UHGV virus genome: UHGV-0045429
Source of the DNA: a virus
DNA: 19,258 nt
Reading direction: 5' to 3' (one strand)
Shown here piece by piece: positions 746 through 19,258 of the stretch. Position 1 is the first letter of the stretch, and every line of letters begins with the position of its first letter. Position numbers and translations under genes: made by a program. Under the pieces are notes generated by a model. The model searched no databases. It had not been told where the DNA came from and saw only the letters and a program-made list of their open reading frames with translations.

Positions 746-2035
746 TTAAATAACTTTTTTCATGCTCCCTCGCCCGTGGGGGCGTCCTGGGGGCAGTGCT
801 GTTGGCATCTGATTGTTCAGCATGTTGACCTGATCCTGGTTCATGTCGCCAATCCACTTGGAGTAAACCTCGTACACCATTCGCGCATCTTCATGCCCCA
901 TCTGACTCGCTATGAATGACGGGTTCGCTCCGGCCATCAACGTCCAGCAGGCATAGGTATGCCGTGACTGATAAGGATTCCTTTCGCGGATATTGGCAAG
1001 TTTAGTACCTCGCTTCCAGCCATAGGCAATCGAGTTCTTGGAAAAGTAACTGCCTTTCTTTGACGAATATGCTGTCGGTGAAAAAACGAAGCGAAGAGAT
1101 TGCTGCTCAGTTTTACCGATCTCCCGATGGTGAAATCGAATTTCTTGCTTCGGATTAGCGCCGGTGATTTCGTATTGCTCCTTCAGTGCATCCAGAGCAG
1201 GCCTAAGCAACGTTATTGTCCTTATTCCGGCATCTGTCTTAGGAGGTACAAATACTCGCTTATTCGTCAAACTTCTGGATACGTGGATTTCACCTTTTAC
1301 CAAATCAATATCTTCCCATGCCAGGGCGCACATCTCGCCCGGCCTCATCCCCGTATGTACGGCAACAATGATGATTAATGCCTGGCTACGGGGAAGGGCG
1401 GCTATCAGTGCCTGGTACTCATGAAGTAAAAGTGGGTCGGGATCATTTTTAGATAACTTGAGTCGCGACACTCCTTCATAAGGAGCATGCAATATAAACT
1501 GGCTTCGGTTTGCGAGCTTAAGCATTTCTGATAAAACTGCCATCTGTTTATTGACTGTTGAGGGCGCGCGGCCTTGCCGGGCCAGATTCGGCATTGCCGG
1601 GTTAATAATTGTACCGGTCAATAACTCCTTTCGGTAATGCAAAATATCGGCATGCTCAATATCTACCAGACGGGTATTTTCTCCGATTACACGCTGTAAC
1701 GTATTTACGACCGAAGTAAGCGATAGCAGCGTTGCACCAGATACCTCTAAGGCTTTGGTGTCTGTAAAAAAATCACTCAACTCTTTAAACGTGGTGATTT
1801 TTTTGGTTGTGATGAACTTCTTAAGCGCTTTGGATTCCGGGAAGCGTTCCGCATAGTCGAACTTACCGAGCTGTATTTCGCTTGTGATGAGTGCGCGAAG
1901 ATTTCCAGCTTTTTTGATGTTGCTGCTGTTCACCGTCCAACCGCGAAGGACTTCGCGGCAACGTTTGCCGCGATAGGTAAATGTAATCCGTATTTTCCCA
2001 TTATGCAGCTCAACGCCGGTTGGAAAGTCCATCAT
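746..2035 (-). CDS. int: Phage tyrosine integrase with N-terminal arm-binding domain
   Basis: 429-aa ORF; C-terminal catalytic signature ...RHTYACW...GHEDARMVYEVYSKW (R/H-x-x-R/Tyr). Start overlaps the stop of the upstream xis-like ORF. Confidence 0.9.
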   Translation of the reverse strand: MMDFPTGVELHNGKIRITFTYRGKRCREVLRGWTVNSSNIKKAGNLRALITSEIQLGKFDYAERFPESKALKKFITTKKITTFKELSDFFTDTKALEVSGATLLSLTSVVNTLQRVIGENTRLVDIEHADILHYRKELLTGTIINPAMPNLARQGRAPSTVNKQMAVLSEMLKLANRSQFILHAPYEGVSRLKLSKNDPDPLLLHEYQALIAALPRSQALIIIVAVHTGMRPGEMCALAWEDIDLVKGEIHVSRSLTNKRVFVPPKTDAGIRTITLLRPALDALKEQYEITGANPKQEIRFHHREIGKTEQQSLRFVFSPTAYSSKKGSYFSKNSIAYGWKRGTKLANIRERNPYQSRHTYACWTLMAGANPSFIASQMGHEDARMVYEVYSKWIGDMNQDQVNMLNNQMPTALPPGRPHGRGSMKKVI

Positions 2036-2534: not shown

Positions 2535-4399
2535 TGCTCCGCCTCCGCACTTATAACCCCAGCGGCCAGCGCAGCTGCCATGTGTGGCAATTCGTCAAAA
2601 TCACCTCGATATGCCGGGTTAGCGCACATCCCCTGCAGAGCCGCTAGCGTCAGCTGCTGGCGGTAGGTCAGGGTGGTAGACAGTTCACCATTGGTGACGT
2701 CGCTACCCGGTGAGGAAGCAGGCAATTCTGGTTTTTTCTTCGGTTTGGCTGTGACAACTGCTGGAGCTATCACTATCGGTTTTGGTGGCTCTGGTCGGCG
2801 ACATTCCACGATCGCATCGAGGGCGATTTTCTGACGCAAGGCAGCATCATCAGACCAGCCATCAAGAATTGTCGTTGCGACATCGTGAATTTCGTCATCG
2901 TTGAAATTAGGGGACAGACAAAATTCAGTGGTGGCGATATCGATGATCAGCAGAGGAAGAACGTCAGCGATAATATGACCGGTGCATGCCACAACGCCTT
3001 CCGCTTCTTCCTTACCCATAACGTCAGTACGTCCCGAAAGCAGGTCGTTCAGTGCGTGGGCAATCTCAATTTCATGATCATCCAGAAGTGGGCGACCGTC
3101 TTCCTGTTCGGTCACTTCCGTTTTTTCGCCCTCATTTGAGGCGCTATTGGCAAATGCTGCATCCAGTTCCCTGTTGAGCTCCGCAGCGCGAGACGGGCAG
3201 ACTGCCGGTATTTCAGTTCCGTTCTGTAATGTCTGTTCGGTTTGATCATTGAGGACCACCTCATTATTTTTTTGTGGCAGTGGGGCGGATGTACGGCCGC
3301 ATGCGATATCAACAATCAGTGGATCCGGATTTGCGTGATTTGACTCAGTCAGGTTTTTATTGATGTATTCGCGCAGTTTTACCGGATCGCGGTAGATATC
3401 CTCCGGAGAGGATTTAATTAGGGCAATAATTGCTGCGCGGGAAAAATCCAGAATACCGGGCGTGCGACGTAACTGTTTCCACCATGCAGTAAAGCGCTCA
3501 TCGGTTGCGGTTTCTTCCATTTTTTTGGCACGCTCATGAACGGCATGCGGCAGTTCGTAGATGTCGAAATCCATAGCAATACCCAGAATACCTATGCAGA
3601 CCTCGCGGCGCAGGGTTGCCAGCGTATGAGGTAGAACGCGATCGGTTGGGTTACCGCCGCCGAGCGTACAGCCTGATTCGGTGTGTGTGTCTTCACTGGT
3701 TTCAGGTTCGTCAGTTTTAAGTTTTACTGGCTCGCGTTTATCGGGCGGGGTCTCAGCCCATTGGGTAAACAGGTTTTTATAGTCTGGCCATTTAGCATTG
3801 TCGCGCGCCCTCTGACGCACCCAGGCCAGGCATTCGGTCTGTTTTTCAGGAAGCATGGCAAGAATGCGGGGTTCTTTGGCAAGACCCTCTGCCTGTTCGC
3901 GTAAAGGGCTAAATTCATCATCATTCAGCATGTCGATTAACTGGCCATACTGAGAAGGGGTGATTTCATCAATGACACCAAACACCGCGAGGCAGTATGA
4001 GCGGGCCAGCACATCCAGTTCTTTCACCGGTTTCATTTTTTCTTCTGTCGCGTCAGCATTGAGTTGTTCATTACCGCCAGCAAGCTCTGGCTCAACTATG
4101 ACGCGCTCTGGTTCACCTTTCTCCGCATTCCAGACAATTTCACCAGTGAAGAGGTCGGTATAGAACTGTCCCTCAACAGTGCAGAACATTCCTTCTTCTG
4201 TTTCCCAGACCTTGGGGGCGAAATAATCATCAGCATAATCTGGCGCGAACTGTATAAAGTCAGCATGCAGTAATGTCTTTGCAATTGTTTTATTTTTCGC
4301 TTGTTTAAAAGCAACATAAACCGGAAGTGTACTGTCTTTTTCAAGTGCACTTTTTTTCGGTTCGAATCTCCCGCCAAATTTTTTTAATCCAGTTGTCAT
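2531..4399 (-). CDS. Large acidic early-left protein resembling the N-terminal region of RecE (exonuclease VIII); no C-terminal nuclease domain recognisable
   Basis: Start taken at MTTGLKKFGG (ATG 4399, GAGG RBS 6 nt upstream). Segments GGGNPTDR...MDFDIYELPHAVHERAKKMEE and LREYINKNLTESNHANPDPLIVDIACGRTSAPLPQ match what I recall of the E. coli Rac RecE N-terminal region. No recT-like ORF follows. Confidence 0.6.
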   Translation of the reverse strand: MTTGLKKFGGRFEPKKSALEKDSTLPVYVAFKQAKNKTIAKTLLHADFIQFAPDYADDYFAPKVWETEEGMFCTVEGQFYTDLFTGEIVWNAEKGEPERVIVEPELAGGNEQLNADATEEKMKPVKELDVLARSYCLAVFGVIDEITPSQYGQLIDMLNDDEFSPLREQAEGLAKEPRILAMLPEKQTECLAWVRQRARDNAKWPDYKNLFTQWAETPPDKREPVKLKTDEPETSEDTHTESGCTLGGGNPTDRVLPHTLATLRREVCIGILGIAMDFDIYELPHAVHERAKKMEETATDERFTAWWKQLRRTPGILDFSRAAIIALIKSSPEDIYRDPVKLREYINKNLTESNHANPDPLIVDIACGRTSAPLPQKNNEVVLNDQTEQTLQNGTEIPAVCPSRAAELNRELDAAFANSASNEGEKTEVTEQEDGRPLLDDHEIEIAHALNDLLSGRTDVMGKEEAEGVVACTGHIIADVLPLLIIDIATTEFCLSPNFNDDEIHDVATTILDGWSDDAALRQKIALDAIVECRRPEPPKPIVIAPAVVTAKPKKKPELPASSPGSDVTNGELSTTLTYRQQLTLAALQGMCANPAYRGDFDELPHMAAALAAGVISAEAEQ

Positions 4400-6046: not shown

Positions 6047-6463
6047 TTATTTTACTCGGGTTTTTCTTTTTCTCTTCTCTGCTTCTAGCAGTTCTTGCAG
6101 GCGGATGCTGTTGTTTTCGTTACGAGCGCGTAACTCTTCGAGGAAGCCGATCTGATCTGACTCGGGAAGTGAATCAAAGAGTTCTAATAACTCTAATTGA
6201 ATATCAGTTAATTCTCTTTGCTCTTCTAATGGTACCGGCGCGCCCGGAATCTGGGCCTCATCACCAAAAAGAAGCCATGCTGGCGCGCACTGCAGGCCTT
6301 TGCTAAGGGCGAACAACCTCTTTCCCGCCGGTTGAGTTTCATCGCGTTCCCACTGGGAAATAGTTACGTGTGCGACCTTTACCAGTTTGCCCAAGGCAGC
6401 CTGGGAAAGGTTTAGCTCTTTGCGTCGCCTTAAAAGACGAGTACCGAAGGTTTCTTTATCCAT
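6047..6463 (-). CDS. DicA/RacR-type prophage repressor (XRE-family HTH, no S24 peptidase domain)
   Basis: 138-aa ORF; N-terminal HTH (LNLSQAALGKLVKVAHVTISQWERDETQP), LFALSKGLQCAPAWLLFGDE and LELLELFDSLPESDQ closely parallel E. coli DicA as I recall it. No recognisable RBS before the ATG. Confidence 0.85.
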   Translation of the reverse strand: MDKETFGTRLLRRRKELNLSQAALGKLVKVAHVTISQWERDETQPAGKRLFALSKGLQCAPAWLLFGDEAQIPGAPVPLEEQRELTDIQLELLELFDSLPESDQIGFLEELRARNENNSIRLQELLEAEKRKRKTRVK

Positions 6464-9684: not shown

Positions 9685-10043
9685 AACCAACCTACGAAGA
9701 ACTGACAGTACAGCTCGCTAACGCCGAGAGCAAGTGCAGGGAGCTGGTGGTGGAATGTTCGACAATCAAAGCCATGAGCGATTGCCTGTCTGAAGAGCTG
9801 CGTGGTTATGAATCTGATGGGGCGTTTGAAGGACCGAAGATGCATCTACTGTGGTGGAAAGCAGAAACTCCCGCGACCGACGCTTTCCTGGCTGAAGTGC
9901 GGGCGCAGGTCCACAAGGAAGGTGCTCACTTTGTAGCAAATAGAATGCTGGCCGCCACTCTTTTTGTTTTCGTTATCCTCAATGCACCCGCATGTAACCC
10001 GCTTCGGCGGGTTAGCTTCTTCTATCTGAGATTTTGTTGCTAA
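9681..10043 (+). CDS. Hypothetical protein (N-terminal coiled-coil-like, hydrophobic C-terminus)
   Basis: GTG start with AGGAG 9 nt upstream, overlapping the previous stop. The C-terminal ~15 codons read through hairpin 9996-10013, so the 3' end may be a fusion artefact. Confidence 0.45.
   Translation: MKPTYEELTVQLANAESKCRELVVECSTIKAMSDCLSEELRGYESDGAFEGPKMHLLWWKAETPATDAFLAEVRAQVHKEGAHFVANRMLAATLFVFVILNAPACNPLRRVSFFYLRFCC
9996..10013 (+). terminator. Hairpin AACCCGC-TTCG-GCGGGTT (copy a of a repeated terminator-type stem-loop); weak U-tract
   Basis: Perfect 7-bp stem with tetraloop; identical 18-mer recurs at 17742-17759. Confidence 0.4.
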
Positions 10044-10205
10044 ACGCAGTCTTACCGTTCTATCTGCAGGCATTGAGTAACTAAGTTCAAATGTTACATT
10101 GATCACGTTTTTTAACGTCTCAAAACCTCATTGGTATTGAGTTCCTTTGTGGTAATGATTTTGTTGGATAAAATAGCCAATATCTCAAGGAGTAGGTAAC
10201 CACTA

Positions 10206-10559
10206 ATGATCAATGATGTTAAAAATGCAAAAATTGAAGAATATTTCACCGTTCTAAAAGAAAAGAGCAGACCTCCAAGCAAAGGTGGGAACACAAAGGC
10301 TCTGCATGCCCACTACATTAAAATTGATGGAATGTTATACAGTTTTCTCGCGTTCGGTTCTAAGCAATGGATTTTCAAAACCGACCGAGTATCATTTAAG
10401 TTCGAAATGAACGGCGAATACAGGAATATTCTCCGGGAATCCATTAGCACTATTGATAGCAATGGGGAAGTAGTAATCAGAGGGTTGCGTGGTTTTAGCA
10501 AGAAGATAAGGACTGCTGATACGCGTTTACCAGCATCCAGAAGGGAATGCAGGGATTGA
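10206..10559 (+). CDS. Hypothetical protein (117 aa) in AT-rich cargo cassette
   Basis: ATG at 10206 with AAGGAG upstream; AT-rich codon usage unlike the flanking phage core (by eye); no family recognised. Confidence 0.6.
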   Translation: MINDVKNAKIEEYFTVLKEKSRPPSKGGNTKALHAHYIKIDGMLYSFLAFGSKQWIFKTDRVSFKFEMNGEYRNILRESISTIDSNGEVVIRGLRGFSKKIRTADTRLPASRRECRD

Positions 10560-10712
10560 ATATGTAATTTGTGTCGAATTTGCAATCATTAGCTAGCAAA
10601 TTGAATAAGTAACATAATAATTTTCATGAATAATATGAATAAAAAACCAGGATGACATACTAGGTGTTTCCGGTATCTTATCTATATATTATTTACGTTC
10701 AAGTGACTTTAA

Positions 10713-10874
10713 ATGACTGGCCAGCAACTTACTGAGCTCGAAATCGCTTATGGTGGGGAAGCTTACTCAGATAATGAAATTGATGCGAAAACAGTAGCTA
10801 AATCACTAAAGGATGTTGAACATTCAATGTCAGTGCATTCAAACGCCCTTCAAAGCGACGCTGATAAGTCTTAA
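10713..10874 (+). CDS. Small acidic ORF (53 aa) below the ORF-track threshold
   Basis: ATG 10713 to TAA 10872-10874 (MTGQQLTELEIAYGGEAYSDNEIDAKTVAKSLKDVEHSMSVHSNALQSDADKS), ending directly before terminator b; weak RBS. Confidence 0.3.
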   Translation: MTGQQLTELEIAYGGEAYSDNEIDAKTVAKSLKDVEHSMSVHSNALQSDADKS

Positions 10875-10889
10875 AGTTCGTGTACTGCT

Positions 10890-10912
10890 AACCCGCTACG
10901 GCGGGTTTTTTT
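10890..10912 (+). terminator. Rho-independent terminator (copy b): AACCCGC-TACG-GCGGGTT plus T7
   Basis: Perfect 7-bp GC-rich stem, tetraloop, run of seven T. Confidence 0.75.
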
Positions 10913-10968
10913 ATGCCCCTTACCAATAAATAATTAACCTGAATTATTGTAAATTATTGAGGTTTGTT

Positions 10969-11607
10969 ATGGGTGGCATTTTCGATGAATCATGGTCTGA
11001 GCAATTTACTCAACGCGTTGAGGCTTTGCGTAAACTGGATGATCAGTCCGTTACTCAACCGCTTTTCAGAGAAAAAGCGGATCTGATTTTTACTCAAATG
11101 GCTGACCGTGTTCGTTCGCGTACGCGACAGCAGCTCGGAGAAATCGACGTTAGCGGGATAACATTTGATTACGCAATCCGCTATTACGTTAATCACGACA
11201 CTGGTGATCCGGTTCTGGATCACCTTGTGTCCAGGGTAGGGCCATTCTGTGACCAGATGAAGATCAGCACGGAGGCGTACGGCACAGCGGCGTTCTGCTG
11301 CGCGCTCATGATGTTGAAAGGCGAGTTGCGTATAGCGTATGCATTTTTCAGCATGCTGATGCGCCCGCTCGTTTCTGCGTACAGGTATAACACCGACGCG
11401 AAACGACGTGGCTCTGCTGGTGGGCGCCCGACAAATCCACTTAAAAACGAGGCACTGGAACTGGCGCGGGTATTTACAAAATCCTATCCTGATTCAACGA
11501 TGGTGGCTGTTGTTAACGCCGTCATTTCTGACCTTGAATCTCACTACGTTGGCACTCCGTCAGCACGCACAATAAAGCGCTGGATTCAGCAGGACCGGAA
11601 AAAATAA
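10969..11607 (+). CDS. Hypothetical protein with C-terminal resolvase-type HTH-like segment (putative DNA-binding regulator)
   Basis: ATG 10969 (GAGG RBS; the track start at 10957 is a TTG). C-terminal GGRPTNPLKNEALELARVF...TPSARTIKRWIQQ resembles the GRP-led HTH of serine recombinases, but no recombinase catalytic domain is present. Confidence 0.55.
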   Translation: MGGIFDESWSEQFTQRVEALRKLDDQSVTQPLFREKADLIFTQMADRVRSRTRQQLGEIDVSGITFDYAIRYYVNHDTGDPVLDHLVSRVGPFCDQMKISTEAYGTAAFCCALMMLKGELRIAYAFFSMLMRPLVSAYRYNTDAKRRGSAGGRPTNPLKNEALELARVFTKSYPDSTMVAVVNAVISDLESHYVGTPSARTIKRWIQQDRKK

Positions 11608-12351: not shown

Positions 12352-12707
12352 CCCGTTACCCCGTAACTCCAATCGGCAAACCCCGAATGACAAGAGCCGA
12401 CAAATGGAAGCAGCGCCCGCCGGTGCTCCGTTATCGTGTTTTCTGCGACGAGGTGCGCCTGCATGAAATCGTTCTGCCTGAAAGCGGCGCCCACGTTATT
12501 TTTGTTCTGCCAATGCCAGCGAGCTGGAGCCAGAAAAAACGCGCCAGCATGAACGGACAGCCTCACCAGCAAAAACCGGATATAGACAACCTCACCAAAT
12601 CCCTCATGGATGCCATTTACGACGACGACGCCCACATTTGGGACGTCCGTGCATCAAAAATCTGGGGTGATGAAGGCGCGATTATTATTCAGGAGGGCAA
12701 GGCGTGA
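12348..12707 (+). CDS. rusA: RusA-family Holliday junction resolvase
   Basis: 119-aa ORF; ...KPDIDNLTKSLMDAIYDDDAHIWD... matches the RusA acidic catalytic region as I recall it. Confidence 0.8.
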   Translation: MTRYPVTPIGKPRMTRADKWKQRPPVLRYRVFCDEVRLHEIVLPESGAHVIFVLPMPASWSQKKRASMNGQPHQQKPDIDNLTKSLMDAIYDDDAHIWDVRASKIWGDEGAIIIQEGKA

Positions 12708-14245
12708 TGCCCTTAACATACGGATCCGTATGCAGCGGAATTGAGGCAGCGAGTGTGGCGTGGGAGGTATTGGGCTGGCGGCCGTCATGGTTTTCTCAGT
12801 TCGATCCGGAACACAATTACAAAAACGGTCCTGATTTCCCGTCTGCGGTGCTGGCGCATCACTGGCCGCACGTAAAAAACCTTGGCGATATGACAAAAAT
12901 CGCCGCAGCAATCCGGCTCGGAGAAATTGAAGCGCCCGACGTTCTGGTAGGTGGTACTCCCTGCCAGGCATTCAGCATTGCTGGACTGCGTAATGGCCTG
13001 ACGGATTCACGCGGCCAACTAACCCTCGCTTTTGTAGAACTGGTAAACGCAATTGATGAAAAACGAAGAGAACAGGGAAAACCACCCGTCATTGTCGTCT
13101 GGGAAAATGTCCCCGGAGTATTCAGCAGCAGAGATAACGCTTTCGGATGTTTTCTTGCAGGGCTTGCCGGCGAAAGCCGTGAACTGGAATCACCAGGGCG
13201 AAAATGGACAAACGCTGGTTATGTGCTGGGACCAGAAAGGGCTGTCTGCTGGCGAGTGCTCGACGCTCAATTTTTCGGAGTGGCCCAACGACGCCGCCGT
13301 GTGTTTGTTATCGCAAGCGCTAGAGGGGATATCGATCCCGCAAAAATACTTTTTGAGTCCGAAGGCATGCGCCGGGATACTCCGCCGCGCAGAGAAACGG
13401 GGGAGATCGTTGCCGCCCTTATTGCAAACGGCGTTGGAGTGTGTGGCGCAGACGATAATCAGGGGCAGGCAGGGCACCTGATTGCCATGGCGCACGGACA
13501 GGCAGGGGCAGAAATTAAAACGGATGATTCCGCGCCTACGCTTACCTGTAACCATGAAGCGCCTATTGTTTTTAGCTGTAATGGACACGCATCGTTTACG
13601 CCGGGAGTCAGTGCTCTGCGAACTAAATCAGGCGCAGACCATGAAACGCTGGCTGTTCATGGTACGCAAGATCCCGACACTTTAAAGAACCTGGCACATA
13701 CGCTGGGTCGAAACCATGGGCAAGAGAATGCCGTTGCCTACTGTCTCCAGCATGCACAAATTAACCGGGCAGATAACGCTGGCCCACAGGGTAAAGGATG
13801 GCAAGAAGAATGCAGATTCACTCTGGATTCTCGTTCTTGTGCTGATGCAGTCGCTTATGCCTTCAAGGCCGGGCAGGGCGCAAAAGCGGGTGGCATTGGC
13901 TGGGCAGAGGAACAATCCCCGACACTGACGGCCGCCAGCAGTGGATCGAATTTATCCCCTTCAGTGGTGAAAAATATGGCCGTTCGCCGCCTTACTCCTG
14001 TCGAATGTGAACGCCTGCAGGGCTTCCCCGATAACCACACTTTAATCCCCCGTGATAAGCGTAAGCAGATTACTGCTGATGAGTACGCATACGCGCGCCA
14101 CCACAACCCAAAAATAACCGCAGAGGAAGCCTACAGGCTGGCGAAGGATGGTCCGCGCTATAAGGCCATTGGTAACAGCATGGCCGTACCGGTTATGCGC
14201 TGGATAGGAAGGCGAATCTCTAACGCTCTGGAGCAGACAATATGA
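12707..14245 (+). CDS. Orphan DNA (cytosine-5) methyltransferase
   Basis: Motif I-like YGSVCSGIEAA, motif IV GGTPCQAFSIAG, motif VI VVWENVPG, QRRRRVF, C-terminal RRLTPVECERLQGFPDNHT and GNSMAVPV; large variable region between. AGGAGGG RBS; start overlaps the rusA stop. No adjacent restriction endonuclease ORF. Confidence 0.9.
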   Translation: MPLTYGSVCSGIEAASVAWEVLGWRPSWFSQFDPEHNYKNGPDFPSAVLAHHWPHVKNLGDMTKIAAAIRLGEIEAPDVLVGGTPCQAFSIAGLRNGLTDSRGQLTLAFVELVNAIDEKRREQGKPPVIVVWENVPGVFSSRDNAFGCFLAGLAGESRELESPGRKWTNAGYVLGPERAVCWRVLDAQFFGVAQRRRRVFVIASARGDIDPAKILFESEGMRRDTPPRRETGEIVAALIANGVGVCGADDNQGQAGHLIAMAHGQAGAEIKTDDSAPTLTCNHEAPIVFSCNGHASFTPGVSALRTKSGADHETLAVHGTQDPDTLKNLAHTLGRNHGQENAVAYCLQHAQINRADNAGPQGKGWQEECRFTLDSRSCADAVAYAFKAGQGAKAGGIGWAEEQSPTLTAASSGSNLSPSVVKNMAVRRLTPVECERLQGFPDNHTLIPRDKRKQITADEYAYARHHNPKITAEEAYRLAKDGPRYKAIGNSMAVPVMRWIGRRISNALEQTI

Positions 14246-14877
14246 TGACCCCACGACAAAAACGAGCTCACAAATCAGCACTGGAACATGCGGCAGCCGC
14301 ACCGAATAAGCGCTGGCTGGGGAAATCAATACTGCTCACCGGTATTCAGTCAGCCTGGATCAAATCGCTACTCTGTGTTTGGGGTGAAAGTATTCGCGGT
14401 GGAATGGCACCAGGAACGCCGAAAGGCCACGCGTGCTGGCGGTCGCTAAAGGGTATGCGCTGGTCCGATAAATCGCTCGAGCGTTTTACAGAGGCACTGA
14501 CTCAGGCGAGAGGTGAGGGATTTAAAGGCGAGCTGGCGTTAAAACGTGCACACGCGATTCTCTGGCCCACAAAACCGGTTAGCGTTATCGACGAGGCTAT
14601 AACGGACGATGATGCAGATTTTATGGAAGCGTGCGTGCTGGAGGCGTTTGAAACAACGGATCCGGTTTACGTTATTGGGGTGAGCTACTACACGACGAGG
14701 AAAAAAATCTCGGACCTGACCCGGGATATTCAGCAGATAGCCCCCAGGCTGACTCCGGATGAGGCAAGAAAGCGCGTGCGCTGGTGTGTTGAAATATTCG
14801 GGGCGCGCGTGTATCTGGAGGCACGCCGTCAGTTACACGCTGATTTACAGAAATCAGAATCTGGCGGGAAAATATGA
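14242..14877 (+). CDS. Putative late-gene antiterminator (Q-like); assignment from position and size
   Basis: 211-aa ORF overlapping the MTase stop; GGAG RBS; sits where Q lies in lambdoid genomes (after the nin/rusA block). Family membership not confirmed by any motif. Confidence 0.45.
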   Translation: MMTPRQKRAHKSALEHAAAAPNKRWLGKSILLTGIQSAWIKSLLCVWGESIRGGMAPGTPKGHACWRSLKGMRWSDKSLERFTEALTQARGEGFKGELALKRAHAILWPTKPVSVIDEAITDDDADFMEACVLEAFETTDPVYVIGVSYYTTRKKISDLTRDIQQIAPRLTPDEARKRVRWCVEIFGARVYLEARRQLHADLQKSESGGKI

Positions 14878-15037
14878 TTTTTGAAATAGAAAATAAGCCG
14901 AATTAATTCAATAAAAATATATAATTACAAATGCCAACATGATTGCATTTGTGTTGGTTATAGTAATTGATTTGTTATATGAAAATGAAATGCTTATAAC
15001 AATCCGCGAAGAATAAAATTAATATATCGAGGACATA

Positions 15038-15334
15038 ATGAAAGAACTATCAGCAAAAGATTTACTACATAAATATTCAAGCCCGCTTGATTCAGTAAGC
15101 CTATTTAACGCAATGCATCTCGCTGGTTTAATTGAAGTAAAGGAATATATTTCCTCGACAGGAAGTGGTGAGATTAAGACCTATCGATCGCTAACTGAGA
15201 GCGGTTTGAAGTATGGGATCAATAAAAGATCTAGTTATAGTGATGCAACTGACTTAAAGTTTTTTCCTTCAAACTTCCATGAATTGTTGGTATTGGTATC
15301 AAAGGAGATTTTGAAGCATTCAGAGATGCTTTAA
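15038..15334 (+). CDS. Hypothetical protein (98 aa) in AT-rich cargo
   Basis: ATG 15038 with GAGGA RBS; preceded by a 160-bp AT-rich promoter-like region directly after the Q-like gene. Confidence 0.5.
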   Translation: MKELSAKDLLHKYSSPLDSVSLFNAMHLAGLIEVKEYISSTGSGEIKTYRSLTESGLKYGINKRSSYSDATDLKFFPSNFHELLVLVSKEILKHSEML

Positions 15335-15415
15335 GGTTTTGATTGAAATCGATGTAGTGGAAAAGAAAACCTCGGCCTGGCAACCGGGGTTCTATAGCGC
15401 GCAAACTTTACCTTT

Positions 15416-15628
15416 TTAGCGTGATTTTTTTCGTTTGAAAAACTCGTAAATTTCGATGCCAACAATAGCGATGGCGTAAAAAGGCCAAAGAAAAGAGGTT
15501 CTAACCGTATCCAGCAGGTCAAATTCCATATCGAGTATTCGATCCGCATGAACCAACAGTGCGAACATCACGATAAATCCCGCGACGTTTAAGGCTAGGT
15601 AAAGATAGAGACTCATGGCTAAATCCAT
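15416..15628 (-). CDS. Small hydrophobic (membrane) protein, convergent with the 98-aa ORF
   Basis: 70-aa ORF; two predicted hydrophobic helices (LYLYLALNVAGFIVMFALLV and FLWPFYAIAIVGIEI) and basic C-terminus KRKKSR; weak RBS. Confidence 0.45.
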   Translation of the reverse strand: MDLAMSLYLYLALNVAGFIVMFALLVHADRILDMEFDLLDTVRTSFLWPFYAIAIVGIEIYEFFKRKKSR

Positions 15629-15812
15629 TTATTAAGGTTTGCTGTGAGTCTACGTGCGATAACCACACAATTAAAAATTGGTATTACAGATCGATTTATC
15701 TTTATCGATCGTTGAAAACGATCGTCATGACACAAATAGCTTAGTGATTGATTGTTATTTAATCAGTTGGAGCCAATTATTTAGTAATTAGTGCTTATTT
15801 TATTAAGCGGCA

Positions 15813-15840
15813 TTGAAAACGAGCCATATTTATTGATAAT
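15813..15840 (+). promoter_or_regulatory. Sigma70-type promoter: TTGAAA (-35), 16-bp spacer, GATAAT (-10)
   Basis: TTGAAA at 15813-15818 and GATAAT at 15835-15840; predicted start about 15847. Confidence 0.4.
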
Positions 15841-15847
15841 TACCTCA

Positions 15848-15935
15848 TGCTTGGCAGAGCTGCGCCACGATGGCAGCGACGATAAGCGAACAATTTGAAC
15901 ATAACGAGAACCCCGCCAGCGCGGGGTTTTTGCTT
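15848..15935 (+). ncRNA. Candidate ~90-nt small RNA or late-leader transcript (promoter to intrinsic terminator, no credible ORF)
   Basis: Only a 12-codon ORF without RBS lies between the promoter and terminator; internal GCTGC...GCAGC stem. Entirely a sequence-based prediction. Confidence 0.3.
15909..15935 (+). terminator. Rho-independent terminator: CCCCGC-CAGC-GCGGGG plus T5
   Basis: Stem 15911-15916 / 15921-15926 followed by TTTTT at 15927-15931. Confidence 0.7.
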
Positions 15936-15946
15936 TCCGGCGATCC

Positions 15947-15989
15947 GACAGGGGTATTCGCGAACGTGCTACGGCACAGTACCCCTGTC
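15947..15989. repeat. 10-bp perfect inverted repeat GACAGGGGTA ... TACCCCTGTC (23-nt spacer)
   Basis: Arms at 15947-15956 and 15980-15989, immediately downstream of the terminator. Confidence 0.45.
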
Positions 15990-16175
15990 AGATCGTCGTT
16001 ATGGTTACTTCTATATGTCAGTTTAGGCCGACATCATTTGTGCCTATCCTTCTGGTCTATTGGATGAGTCAAACGTACCTTGAATGAGGATTGTAGGTGC
16101 CAGCCCGTAAGCCCTGCGGCATGGGGCTTAGTCGAAAAAACACCTCTTTTTTGCAACTTTTTATCACGTTTTCCC

Positions 16176-16223
16176 GTGACAAGATCCTGTTTACTGTTAG
16201 AATCACTCCACATGATTCATGTG
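16176..16223 (+). promoter_or_regulatory. Promoter of the two-gene operon with operator-like palindrome
   Basis: GTGACA (-35, 16176-16181), 16-bp spacer, extended -10 TGtTAGAAT (16195-16203); palindrome CACATG-ATT-CATGTG at 16209-16223 at the predicted start site. Confidence 0.4.
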
Positions 16224-16280
16224 ATGTGAATCTTTTAAAAAAAATAAAAACACATCTATTTCAACGAGTAAGCTCAAAAA

Positions 16281-17045
16281 ATGCAGGCTCAACCCAAGAC
16301 TAAACACCAAGAGTTGGTCGAGACGCTATCATTATATATAGACTCGCGAACCCCGTTAGAAGAACCTCTTTTGGGTGAAATCTTTCGCGATATCAATAAA
16401 CAGTCCGGTGCGTCTCGTGCGTATCTCATGGCTTTGTGGATGGAAGTTCAGAACAGACATGATGAGACAGTGGAATGGTATCTAGAGGCGATAGCTACTT
16501 CTGGTGAGCTCGCTTCTGTTGTCGCAGGTAACTATCTGAGTTATCTGAGTTGCTCAGCGCACAATCTTTTTCACAGAACAGAATTGTTCCGATTGGTAGA
16601 TATATATTGTACTAAGCGGATAAGAAAAATGGCCAGGAATGCAGCATTTTGCATGGGAAATGACCGGCTTGTTAACCGATTCACTGTGATGATGAAGGCT
16701 TTACTCGACGGCCAAGAGCGGGAAGAAATTGAGCGTGAGGGGGCAAAAATGGTGGAAGCTATTGTTACTTTTAAAGAAGCCACTAAGCTAACTTCATCTG
16801 AAATCCAGCAGTTGTGTGATTCAGCCGAACAGATTGCAAATAGCCACGGCGTGAATTGCGCTGGTGTTGAATATTTTCTGAGTGGTGGATATGACAACGC
16901 CATAATCCTATTTGCAGAAACCAGCGACGCTAGCACACTTACCACTATGAACATGGAACTCATAGGTTTGCTTGCTGATGATGCCTATATCGATCGTCCA
17001 TTTACCTCATGGTTTAAGAGCGCAGATATGAAGGATAGGATCTAA
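16281..17045 (+). CDS. Hypothetical protein (254 aa), first gene of cargo operon; no recognisable catalytic motif
   Basis: ATG 16281; stop TAA overlaps the start of the downstream gene (TAATG); lower GC than the phage core by eye; no Walker or nucleotidyltransferase motif. Confidence 0.7.
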   Translation: MQAQPKTKHQELVETLSLYIDSRTPLEEPLLGEIFRDINKQSGASRAYLMALWMEVQNRHDETVEWYLEAIATSGELASVVAGNYLSYLSCSAHNLFHRTELFRLVDIYCTKRIRKMARNAAFCMGNDRLVNRFTVMMKALLDGQEREEIEREGAKMVEAIVTFKEATKLTSSEIQQLCDSAEQIANSHGVNCAGVEYFLSGGYDNAIILFAETSDASTLTTMNMELIGLLADDAYIDRPFTSWFKSADMKDRI

Positions 17046-17446
17046 TGAGCGTATCAGGTCAAGATTTCATTGATTTTGCAGAGAAATGTCTCGATTTCGG
17101 TGATGAGATAGGCTTCAGGAACGTAGTTGGACGCTCCTACTATGGTGTTTACCATGAGATCTGCAGTAAACTTGAGCATTGCTATGTATTGACCTCTCAT
17201 GAGGGGGTGCGTCAGTATCTTATGAGCTCTTCACAGTGTAAAAATGAGCCGTTTGATAAAGCCGGGCTGAGGAGGATTGGTGTTTTCCTTCATAGTCTTC
17301 ACGTGCAAAGAAAGTGGGCTGATTACACACTTCAGCGCGATTTGGTTAAAACTGATGCTGAGTCGGCGCTCAATACTGCGAAACAAGTAATGGATGAAAT
17401 TAAGGCGTTGCATGAGGCAGTTTACCCTCCTCAGCCAGCAGCATAA
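17045..17446 (+). CDS. HEPN-like protein (133 aa) with N-terminal R-x6-H motif; candidate RNase toxin/effector
   Basis: GRSYYGVYH (R30 at 17132-17134, H37 at 17153-17155) fits the HEPN Rx4-6H signature; AGGA RBS; translationally coupled to the upstream gene; followed by terminator c. Confidence 0.65.
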   Translation: MSVSGQDFIDFAEKCLDFGDEIGFRNVVGRSYYGVYHEICSKLEHCYVLTSHEGVRQYLMSSSQCKNEPFDKAGLRRIGVFLHSLHVQRKWADYTLQRDLVKTDAESALNTAKQVMDEIKALHEAVYPPQPAA

Positions 17447-17460
17447 CTCACCAATTATTG

Positions 17461-17488
17461 AAACCCGCTACGGCGGGTTTTCTTTTTC
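17461..17488 (+). terminator. Rho-independent terminator (copy c): AACCCGC-TACG-GCGGGTT plus T-rich tail
   Basis: 18-mer identical to copy b (10890-10907); followed by TTTTCTTTTTC. Confidence 0.75.
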
Positions 17489-17541
17489 GCTTCATCAATT
17501 CCTGCTACGATTCCCTGTCTTTTACTGATGGGGATAGGGAT

Positions 17542-17709
17542 ATGAAGAAAGTTCTTGTTGTTTTATTGGTGTCACTTTTCTCACTGACAGCAACGGCAGC
17601 AAACAAGCCATGCTCAGGTAAGAAAGGCGGAATATCGCATTGTTCGGGTGAAAAGTTTGTTTGCAATGATGGCTCTATCAGCAAGTCTAAGAAGGTTTGT
17701 CAGAAATAG
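17542..17709 (+). CDS. Small secreted Cys-rich, Lys-rich protein (55 aa) with signal peptide
   Basis: Start at MKKVLVVLLVSLFSLTATAA (signal-peptide-like) then NKPCSGKKGGISHCSGEKFVCNDGSISKSKKVCQK (4 Cys). The track ORF from 17458 reads through terminator c and is an over-extension. Confidence 0.55.
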   Translation: MKKVLVVLLVSLFSLTATAANKPCSGKKGGISHCSGEKFVCNDGSISKSKKVCQK

Positions 17710-17740
17710 TTATTAATAAATAGCACTCGCCATCAAAATC

Positions 17741-17763
17741 AAACCCGCTTCGGCGGGTTTTTC
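17741..17763 (+). terminator. Rho-independent terminator (copy d): AACCCGC-TTCG-GCGGGTT plus T5
   Basis: 18-mer identical to copy a (9996-10013). Confidence 0.75.
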
Positions 17764-17828
17764 ACTCTCTAACGGATATGTTATTTTCATGCAATAAGAG
17801 CGATTAGTAAGATGCTGCTGGGGAGAAC

Positions 17829-17990
17829 ATGGATTCAACGGACGACGAAGAGAAACGCATAGAATTTGAAAAATTCATCATTGAAAGGTTTGGTGATACG
17901 GTTGACCTTCGCAGGGCGAAGCATGGCAATAACGGATATATTTCATGGGAAGCGGCGGTTGCTTGGGTTGTCTGGCAGGAGCGCTCATAG
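17829..17990 (+). CDS. Small ORF (53 aa) below the ORF-track threshold
   Basis: ATG 17829 to TAG 17988-17990, GGGAG 3 nt upstream; MDSTDDEEKRIEFEKFIIERFGDTVDLRRAKHGNNGYISWEAAVAWVVWQERS. Reads more coherently than the overlapping 83-aa track ORF. Confidence 0.4.
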   Translation: MDSTDDEEKRIEFEKFIIERFGDTVDLRRAKHGNNGYISWEAAVAWVVWQERS

Positions 17991-18319
17991 CACCATGAAA
18001 CAACGTCTACCTCTAGCGGGCGCTGATTTATTATGGCGCTGCCCGGAGCGTCCCGTCATTCACTATGGACTCCCACTTGGCAACGTCGTTTTAGAATTTG
18101 ATTTTGGTCCGCTATGAGCTGTGAGTTCAACTGATGGACGCAACACACTTATTGAACCGCTCTGCAGGATGGCTCGGAACCTGGATTATTATTCCAGAGA
18201 TTAGCGCTGGCTTTTTTCTCGCTTTCAGGCAGCAGAATGAGGCCAATTTTTAACACCCGACCATGGCTTGCACGGCCGGGTAATGGCTAAGAATGCGCGT
18301 AAACAAAAGGTTATGCCAC

Positions 18320-19258
18320 TTATGTGCCTAAATGTTTATTAAAGAATGGAATAATCTCCGATAGCGCTTGTGCCGTCGCTTCCGGACGATCATACAGATC
18401 ATAGTGAGATACCCCTTTCACAACCTGCAGCGTCTTCTCAACGGAGCGCGCGCGCTGATAAAGTTCATAACCGTCGCGATAAGAACCAAAACCACCAGGA
18501 ACATCGCCAATAACAATATGTAATGGTTGTATCAGTAGCTTTTCCGTAAAGGCAAAAGCATCCCAGTTTAAGGCCGGTGCGGTGCTGGTAAGTCGCAGTT
18601 TGTTAGGCGAGCCTGGCTTTTGCCCGCGCGGGGTCGTGTAGTAATCAACGGCCTCAATGAGGTCGATATCGTTGATGTTCGCATTCGCCAACGCTTCTGC
18701 ATTGTCAGGAATATAACCGACAACAAGAGCAGCGGCTCCCCGAGCTTCAGCAGTACGCTGTTTACCCAGCGCGTCAATCGTTCTGAGCGCGGCATCCGGA
18801 CTGGAATCCCCTTCACGCATAATGCGCCCATAATTGGCGGCAACCACAGTGGCAACGGCTTTGAAACGGTGATCAATGGTAGCGGCGCTAACGGCATATC
18901 CACCGCCGCCACAAACGCCTAAAACCCCAATACGATCTTCATCCACGTAGGCTAAAGTCACCAGATAGTCTATCGCGCAGCGAAAGTCTTCCACGCGGAT
19001 GGATGGATTTTCGCTAAAGCGTGGCTCACCCCCGCTTTCACCCTGGGTAGAGGCATCGAAAGCAAGAGTAATAAATCCAGCTTCAGTTAGCTTCTGGCCG
19101 TAGACTGCGCCAGATGTCTGTTCTTTACAACTGCTGATAGGATGGGCGCAAACAATCGCCGGGTATTTCTGGTTGGCATCAAATCCCTCAGGTAAGCGGA
19201 GAGTGGCGGCAACTTGCCAGCTGTTGTGCCGGAATGAAACGAGTTGTTCATGAGACAT
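18320..19258 (-). CDS. Alpha/beta hydrolase of the dienelactone-hydrolase type (Cys nucleophile)
   Basis: 312-aa ORF; nucleophile elbow GVLGVCGGGGYA (G-x-C-x-G-G). The start codon lies at the last three bases of the window, so the upstream region is not visible. Confidence 0.8.
   Translation of the reverse strand: MSHEQLVSFRHNSWQVAATLRLPEGFDANQKYPAIVCAHPISSCKEQTSGAVYGQKLTEAGFITLAFDASTQGESGGEPRFSENPSIRVEDFRCAIDYLVTLAYVDEDRIGVLGVCGGGGYAVSAATIDHRFKAVATVVAANYGRIMREGDSSPDAALRTIDALGKQRTAEARGAAALVVGYIPDNAEALANANINDIDLIEAVDYYTTPRGQKPGSPNKLRLTSTAPALNWDAFAFTEKLLIQPLHIVIGDVPGGFGSYRDGYELYQRARSVEKTLQVVKGVSHYDLYDRPEATAQALSEIIPFFNKHLGT

Follow-up and report, generated by a model that had tools for sequence, protein, structure and literature searches.

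The 19,258-nt viral genome UHGV-0045429 (the window, by which we mean the whole stretch of DNA analyzed) holds a lambdoid prophage that adjoins a chromosomal response-regulator gene. Between its Q-like late antiterminator gene and its pR'-like late promoter lie two small convergent genes, one rightward for a 98-aa soluble protein (15038–15334, plus strand) and one leftward for a 66-aa inner-membrane hairpin peptide (15416–15616 including the stop codon, minus strand). We favor, although without strong confidence, an interpretation in which these genes are two morons acquired independently by a truncated prophage, the leftward one being a self-contained module of operator, promoter, peptide gene and terminator that, by analogy with characterized systems, would be controlled by a Dam/OxyR epigenetic switch.

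A conserved three-GATC operator upstream of the peptide gene

An earlier note, made from the letters of the window, had pointed to repeated palindromes upstream of the peptide gene as a likely regulator binding pattern. These palindromes are present (ATCGAT at 15690 and 15704, CGATCG at 15706 and 15719) and look like a true binding site for a regulator, one that accompanies the peptide gene from locus to locus. The interval contains three GATC sites, the target of the Dam methylase, at 15689, 15707 and 15720, with offsets of 18 and 13 nt. Scoring against the OxyR half-site consensus ATAGnTnnnAnCTAT, which has 10 specified positions (20 for two copies), predicted two OxyR-type half-sites that start 31 nt apart (32 nt in the relative L010), a spacing appropriate for a tetramer of reduced OxyR. 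Half-site A (15708–15722; ATCGTTGAAAACGAT on the plus strand and ATCGTTTTCAACGAT on the peptide strand) matches at 8/10 positions and is flanked by the GATCs at 15707–15710 and 15720–15723, 13 nt apart, and half-site C (15677–15691; ATCTGTAATACCAAT in the peptide sense) matches at 7/10 and contains the GATC at 15689–15692. Read on the plus strand, the complete operator is ACAGATCGATTTATC-TTTATCG-ATCGTTGAAAACGAT. It is the only site in the 19 kb of the window, considering both strands and spacings of 22, 31 and 32 nt, that scores at least 15/20 against two copies of ATAGnTnnnAnCTAT. With the same scoring and a 22-nt spacing, validated sites reach 13–14/20 as compared with 12–14/20 here.

Alignment of five divergent loci showed that about 105 nt upstream of the peptide gene are strongly conserved, even beside unrelated late regions. 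Between clades, the 105 nt from the operator to the ATG were 74–92% identical and the next 107 nt upstream 57–74%, with differences at 54–83% of synonymous sites. The three GATCs were invariant in 23 distinct modules, and the spacers between them varied. Among 15 distinct operators of the peptide family, the columns specified by the OxyR consensus varied in only 2 out of 20 cases, as compared with 18 out of 26 columns that it leaves unspecified (Fisher p = 7e-5); when only the half-sites were counted, the figures were 2/20 and 6/10 (p = 0.007). GATCs and OxyR-specified positions are, that is, conserved while other positions drift, and both the exact architecture of the operator and its conservation go beyond chance. 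BLAST comparison of the regulatory region with 5,426 Escherichia coli genomes matched only strain SC476 and gave no match to agn43; the likeness to agn43 described below exists at the motif level only.

Half-site C lies directly upstream of a -35-like TTTAAT (15675–15670), which, together with a 17-nt spacer and the -10-like TAGACT (15652–15647), makes up the predicted peptide promoter (15647–15675, minus strand). The promoter sequence GTAGACTC was invariant in 23 out of 23 distinct peptide modules; its position is suggested by this invariance and by the geometry of the sister families examined below. Transcription would start near 15640, giving a leader of approximately 24 nt with a GGA Shine-Dalgarno sequence, and the predicted operator would extend from about -37 to -82, with its half-sites centered at about -75 and -44. 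On the peptide strand, the DNA upstream of the operator showed no conserved -35 or -10 sequences that could form a promoter in the style of agn43.

The same operator architecture precedes unrelated phage genes

We scanned 2.9 million viral contigs with a pattern specifying only half-site A, which retrieved 116 stretches representing 88 distinct contexts. A third GATC was located exactly 18 or 19 nt from the pair in 62 of the 88 contexts, when about 1.4 were expected by chance. Grouping of the contexts by their downstream sequence resulted in 23 families, and 22 of them matched the right arm of half-site C (A.CTAT) in at least four of five positions, against a background of 0.013; this arm had not been specified in the search and shares no position with the GATC. 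In phage contigs, at least 23 unrelated gene families have an operator of this architecture upstream. The sister families also share the promoter geometry of the peptide module: a -35-like hexamer (TTGACC, TTGATA, TTGAAT, TAGACA or TTTAAC) immediately follows half-site C, with a -10-like hexamer 17 nt further on, and a small open reading frame (ORF) begins 65–115 nt beyond the third GATC, as with the peptide. The first four of these hexamers are better -35 sequences than the TTTAAT of the window, where the operator abuts the predicted -35 in the same manner but the weak promoter escaped the consensus scan.

Where recognizable, the genes carried by these families are moron-like. In the largest group (L020, L021, L023 and around 30 others), the operator is found 44 nt upstream of a gene for a Com-like zinc-finger protein, followed by a DNA methyltransferase, as annotated in phage Chuche (PP925824.1, 8803–8997). 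This group, with GATC offsets of 18 and 13 nt and a 15/20 match to OxyR, resembles the com-mom operon of phage Mu with a methyltransferase replacing Mom. Other cargo includes an AntA-type antirepressor of 164 aa (L112), GT25 lipopolysaccharide glycosyltransferases (L025, L061) and several unrelated membrane peptides of 40–51 aa (L075, L047, L035, L127), the remainder being orphan small proteins. A switch acting on the antirepressor could make prophage induction itself bistable. Additionally, the lambdoid loci L007 (6652–6687, minus strand) and L017 (1448–1483, plus strand) contain second three-GATC switches in their nin regions, upstream of orphan ORFs of 61–69 aa, indicating that such switches can occur more than once in a single prophage.

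These data bear on whether OxyR is the protein that reads the palindromes. Palindromes as simple as CGATCG and ATCGAT could be recognized by many dimeric proteins, and a phage repressor, another LysR-type regulator or SeqA bound to hemimethylated GATCs might use them for conventional, non-epigenetic regulation; OxyR binding is here a prediction, and the half-sites, with a total of 15/20, deviate from the consensus at positions 3 and 13 (ATCG...CGAT versus ATAG...CTAT). However, agn43, gtr and Mu mom, whose OxyR sites are experimentally established, deviate identically, because the deviation creates the GATC (PMC2909390). Moreover, a host factor is the more parsimonious reader of an element that precedes at least 23 unrelated gene families across phage types, as well as agn43, and sequence variation avoids exactly the positions specified by OxyR. 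We consider it unlikely that the operator belongs to a protein other than OxyR.

Proposed operation of the switch

Enterobacteriaceae carry both dam and oxyR. If the peptide module behaves like opvAB, gtr, agn43 and Mu mom, its operator would be contested by the OxyR and the Dam methylase of the host: OxyR bound to unmethylated GATCs would block Dam, and methylated GATCs would block OxyR. Each methylation state would be heritable, and a population of lysogens would split into peptide-ON and peptide-OFF lineages. We infer OxyR binding, its sensitivity to methylation, the position of the promoter, bistability and the function of the peptide. Because the operator adjoins a poor -35, we favor the OxyR-bound state as the ON state, as at the OBSD site of opvAB; repression, as at Mu mom, is the alternative sign.

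Extending this to the sister families, we tentatively suggest a portable phase-variation cassette, in which a compact unit of around 80 bp, made up of an operator of the Dam/OxyR type and a weak promoter, would have spread among temperate enterobacterial phages, driving at least 23 unrelated moron families. The 66-aa peptide might then be a phase-variable inner-membrane factor for defense or exclusion, the cost of which would be hedged epigenetically. This broader proposal is possible rather than probable; if correct, many prophage traits would be expressed only in a heritable subpopulation of lysogens.

Several observations weigh against a Dam/OxyR switch, or limit how far it can be taken. 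At the classical 22-nt spacing the distal half-site of the window matches at only 4/10 positions, and the 31-nt reading was chosen after the data had been seen. Three clustered GATCs do not by themselves exceed what chance provides, since 148 out of 300 dinucleotide shuffles of the window contained one. The proposed promoter is weak (3/6 for the -35 and 4/6 for the -10) and was missed by a consensus scan. The order of the half-sites relative to the gene is reversed with respect to Mu mom and agn43, the half-site with two GATCs being proximal to the promoter in Mu and distal here. The switch families may share one ancestral cassette and are then not fully independent samples. OxyR binding, undermethylation of the GATCs, the transcription start site and bistability are all predictions, and the role of the peptide, for which no relative of known function could be detected, is guessed from its surroundings. 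Lastly, the prophage is truncated and the module could be a relic, although its coding sequence and operator are intact.

The peptide is a small, rare inner-membrane protein

The leftward ORF had been described as a 70-aa membrane peptide with two helices. The helices stand, although the length probably does not: all homologs begin with MS(I/L)Y, so translation most likely starts at the ATG at 15616, giving 66 aa (MSLYLYL...KRKKSR), and not at the in-frame ATG at 15628, which would extend the peptide by MDLA. The product comprises a first transmembrane helix (residues 3–23), an acidic loop (24–41, with five D/E and two K/R) holding the invariant motif EFD...T..TSFLWPFY, a second transmembrane helix (42–60) and the tail KRKKSR, with a charge of +5. 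By the positive-inside rule it is most likely a hairpin with both ends in the cytoplasm (N-in/C-in), and AlphaFold (AF2) modeled helices at 2–27, 34–40 and 44–65, with a predicted local distance difference test score (pLDDT) of 70. In four of the five clades, those of the window, L003, L007 and L010, the consensus start is preceded at a distance of four codons by another in-frame ATG (MDLAM, MEFTM, MELTM, MGSIM), which recalls the dual starts of holins. In the largest, SC476-like clade the upstream ATG is out of frame, and its reading frame ends in a TGA overlapping the start codon.

The peptide family is very small. We found seven homolog clusters among 5.8 billion proteins, a profile search of 1.84 billion representative proteins returned only the family itself (11 representative clusters), and the peptide occurred in two out of 185,579 species genomes, both of Citrobacter. 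The identified carriers are Citrobacter youngae, C. portucalensis and one E. coli. No match was found in Pfam, PHROGs, NCBIfam, PADLOC or the sequences of the PDB, nor to any holin, toxin or defense family. The homolog of E. coli SC476 (MSLYHYLAIY..., 65 aa) lies with its switch at 3944–4141 of L002 (NZ_LR778151.1), in a stretch with no annotated feature in RefSeq.

From the known cargo of Dam/OxyR switches (gtr, opvAB, mom; PMC2909390, PMC4652898) and from its topology, the peptide probably serves lysogenic conversion at the inner membrane, where it may, for instance, exclude superinfecting phages or bring about another change of the envelope or a defense function. An alternative is that it times lysis, as a holin, antiholin or pinholin-like protein of the adjacent lysis cassette, with the palindromes tuning lysis. 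T4 Imm, class II holins and pinholins are similar to the peptide in size and in having two transmembrane helices and a basic cytoplasmic tail. Its size, two transmembrane domains and charged C-terminus fit the topology of class II holins and pinholins, some clades have a possible dual start, and the peptide gene always adjoins a late or lysis operon, lying directly beside two holin genes in L010 and L011. However, loci with the peptide gene also possess recognizable holins, which are separate genes in L010 and L011, the peptide gene points away from the late operon and has a predicted promoter of its own, no holin family of Pfam or PHROGs was matched, the upstream ATG is out of frame in the largest clade, and the window keeps the peptide despite the loss of the whole lysis cassette. 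A class II holin or pinholin would be encoded within the lysis cassette and cotranscribed with the endolysin from the late promoter, and the peptide gene is instead situated outside the lysis operon and in the opposite orientation; no similarity in sequence or profile connects it to small phage inner-membrane proteins for exclusion or lysis. Because of its orientation away from the lysis genes and its own switch-type promoter, the peptide is unlikely to be the holin of the phage, and we assign a low probability to any role in lysis timing.

The two convergent genes are independent

A convergent pair is present, as the earlier note had it, in ORFs 15038–15334 (plus strand, 98 aa) and 15416–15628 (minus strand, 70 aa in that delimitation), and its AT-rich, foreign-looking composition is also borne out, with a GC content of 0.37 at 15001–15500 versus around 0.53–0.55 in the upstream genes. 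Both ORFs are real genes, with ratios of nonsynonymous to synonymous substitution (dN/dS) of 0.07–0.19, synonymous sites near saturation and many invariant alignment columns. For the peptide, dN/dS was 0.07–0.19 with a proportion of synonymous differences of 0.54–0.83, and for the 98-aa gene dN/dS was 0.09–0.12. Overlapping ORFs in other frames (15231–15404 and 15331–15549, both on the minus strand) had no support as genes.

The two genes do not form a functional pair. Relatives of the peptide were found in more than 25 phage loci, and the 98-aa gene accompanied it only in the lineage of the window itself, that is, in the window and in two contigs (L160 and L161) that are both 97% identical to it. 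Conversely, the 98-aa gene was found without the peptide in four other contexts, including the tail region of a Salmonella P2-like phage, a position after a Bro-N gene and the edge of a Lelliottia prophage. The peptide gene is always just upstream of, and divergent from, the late or lysis operon, and its neighbors on the other side vary: a Q gene of the phrog_753 type in the window and in E. coli SC476, a Q gene of the PF06530 type in L003–L006, a KilA-N gene in L007 and L008, and two holin genes, without Q, in L010 and L011. The convergent genes are separated by a hairpin (15363–15390) that resembles a terminator on the minus strand, at the end of the peptide transcript, and does so more weakly on the plus strand; a terminator scan identified on the minus strand a stem (15386–15373) followed by AGGTTTTCTT. 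A different hairpin with a T-run occupies the equivalent place in SC476.

This arrangement speaks against a two-gene cassette for addiction or abortive infection, in which the membrane peptide would be a toxin or holin-like killer and the 98-aa protein its antidote. Such a cassette was suggested by the adjacency, convergence and foreign, AT-rich look of the genes, by the holin-like character of the peptide (two transmembrane domains, a basic C-terminal tail and, in part of the clades, a further in-frame start codon four codons before the first), and by the recurrence of the pair in L160 and L161. At 97% identity, however, these two contigs and the window amount to a single lineage, the more than 25 other peptide loci lack the 98-aa gene, and the four contexts of the latter lack the peptide. 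A terminator-like hairpin divides the genes into separate transcription units, and PADLOC, Pfam and NCBIfam gave no match to a toxin, antitoxin or holin. The suggestion that the 98-aa protein counteracts the peptide was not borne out: the genes co-occur only in the lineage of the window, and they converge on the hairpin. We also rejected a toxin-antitoxin or toxin-immunity pair, which would be inherited jointly, and a toxin cassette relying on cotranscription or antisense RNA: the genes are convergent around a hairpin, with no Rfam family and no conserved antisense promoter seen. The toxin/antidote explanation is largely refuted by the lack of co-occurrence, and we give it hardly any weight.

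The 98-aa gene is an independent moron and most likely a separate passenger, unrelated to the peptide switch. Its product has 12 homolog clusters among the 5.8 billion proteins, with 37 invariant columns, and in its confident AF2 model (pLDDT 91) two short helices accompany a sheet of four strands, and a long helix forms the C-terminus. Its only PHROG matches were weak, to phrog_6486 (1e-5) and to the C-terminus of phrog_129 (1e-3); Pfam, NCBIfam and PADLOC gave no match, the fold comparison no significant one, and the PDB sequence profiles nothing. We found no similarity to the KilA-N and Bro-N proteins that occupy the same slot, of which it could have been a detached C-terminal domain.

The late promoter and the prophage context

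Two copies of TTGAAAACGA, at 15712 and 15813, had been taken in the earlier note for one regulator pattern. The 10-mer repeat is instead coincidental, because the copies belong to different conserved elements: in relatives, the first copy keeps only AAAACGATCG, part of the OxyR-type half-site A in which it lies, and the second keeps only TTGAAAAC, the -35 of the late promoter. This promoter, TTGAAA-16-GATAAT (15813–15840, plus strand), matches the consensus at 10/12 positions, the best match in the interval, and resembles pR'. About 65 nt after it follows an intrinsic terminator like tR' (15905–15937, plus strand), with a 12-bp GC-rich stem and a U-run (-34.7 kcal/mol, z = -2.3), which would end a short late leader transcript. 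In the Citrobacter phage Chris1, where both ORFs are missing, promoter and terminator are retained right after Q, and SC476 and L007 conserve them as well; in Chris1 and SC476 it is a Q homolog that precedes the same late promoter. The leader at 15813–15937 is 96.6% identical to that of Chris1 and represents a late leader of the pR'/tR' type. In the window, pR' is displaced from Q by approximately 930 bp, occupied by the two morons.

The proximity of pR' raises the question of whether the operator acts on the plus strand, on pR' or an unannotated rightward transcript, with the peptide merely adjacent; in a variant, the locus would be a type I toxin/antisense-RNA system. On that strand the order of the half-sites, first that with one GATC and then that with two, is the same as in Mu mom and agn43, and the gene lies on that side in the Com/methyltransferase family. 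Yet the distance to pR', about 90 bp, is not conserved, and in L003 and L010 the late regions are unrelated while operator and peptide stay at a fixed 83–116 nt. We found no plus-strand promoter adjoining the operator, and Rfam searches over 14000–18400 gave nothing above any gathering threshold, only sub-threshold noise. A plus-strand role is very improbable.

The Q-like gene (14242–14877, plus strand) matches phrog_753 ('anti-termination protein Q-like', E = 4e-54), and the two-moron cassette begins after its stop codon. The gap after Q in lambdoid phages is a classical site of moron insertion. Further upstream are an integrase gene (746–2035, minus strand) and a CI-like repressor gene (6047–6463, minus strand), the latter followed by genes for CII-like, O-like replication, Ref/NinG-like nuclease and RusA proteins, a C5-cytosine methyltransferase and the Q-like antiterminator. 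The methyltransferase (12704–14245), situated between RusA and Q, is unusually long at 513 aa; it is missing from L160, which is otherwise nearly identical to the window, and there RusA abuts Q. A second AT-rich island (10001–11000, GC content 0.37–0.39) in the nin region contains a 117-aa ORF (10206–10559) with no family match and a 216-aa ORF (10957–11607) matching phrog_5215, and is probably another moron insertion. Downstream of the cassette are two genes of no named function (16281–17045, phrog_17809; 17045–17446, phrog_5176) and an alpha/beta-hydrolase gene (18320–19258, minus strand) that is probably chromosomal. There are no lysis, head, tail or other structural genes 3' of Q in the window and the sequence passes into the hydrolase gene, indicating that the prophage is truncated.

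Significance and comparison with known Dam/OxyR switches

The experimentally characterized Dam/OxyR switches in the searchable literature are those of agn43, Mu mom, gtr, opvAB and possibly ssaN. The regulatory logic proposed here is already known in kind, and the peptide module itself is without description in that literature: our search found no account of it or of a wider set of switch-linked phage morons, and a catalog of Dam-dependent bistable Salmonella loci contains nothing similar (PMC7708049). If the prediction holds, the module would be a new Dam/OxyR target whose product is a very small inner-membrane protein, and, judging from the sister families, prophages may commonly use switches of this kind to render lysogenic-conversion genes bistable. 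This would bear on phage-host bet-hedging, on the reading of undermethylated GATCs in methylomes and on annotation, the peptide gene of SC476 being unannotated. Should it fail, what is left is a pair of orphan morons at a hot-spot already known for such insertions.

Phage Mu mom, regulated by Dam and OxyR (MomR), has its three GATCs at exactly the offsets found in the window, 18 and 13 nt. It is likewise phage-borne, with OxyR-type half-sites that overlap the GATCs upstream of a weak promoter, and it has the string GGTA(A/T)TACAGATCGATT in common with the window. It differs in that it also needs the phage C activator, OxyR represses, and the cargo is a DNA-modification enzyme and not a membrane peptide (PMC2909390). 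The E. coli K-12 agn43 (flu) operator, ACGATCAATATCTAT-TTTATCG-ATCGTTTATATCGAT, is also a single OxyR tetramer site with three GATCs (offsets of 19 and 13 nt) and shares with the window the spacer TTTATCG and the half-site ATCGnTnnnAnCGAT. Unlike the arrangement proposed here, it is located downstream of the transcription start and represses, its cargo is an autotransporter, and BLAST detected no similarity. In gtr of P22, each pair of GATCs, 13 nt apart, falls within a single OxyR half-site, and the distance between half-sites is 32 nt (PMC2909390). The window resembles this prophage-encoded system in its two-GATC half-site with a 13-nt offset and its half-site spacing of about 32 nt, whereas gtr has three half-sites and four GATCs, no BLAST similarity, and genes for O-antigen glucosylation as cargo.

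The opvAB locus of Salmonella has four half-sites and four GATCs with alternative occupancy; the module of the window, with two half-sites and three GATCs, would allow only one bound state, and OpvA and OpvB are unrelated in sequence to the peptide. Both systems are nonetheless AT-rich and horizontally acquired and encode small inner-membrane products, which in the case of opvAB give phage resistance (PMC4856963, PMC4652898). The half-sites of opvAB are centered at -148, -116, -75 and -43, a 32-nt spacing being canonical for reduced OxyR, and OBSD, a 7/10 half-site that includes a GATC, directly precedes the -35 (PMC4856963). The predicted centers in the window, at about -75 and -44, closely parallel OBSC (-75) and OBSD (-43), and here too a 7/10 half-site containing a GATC abuts the predicted -35.

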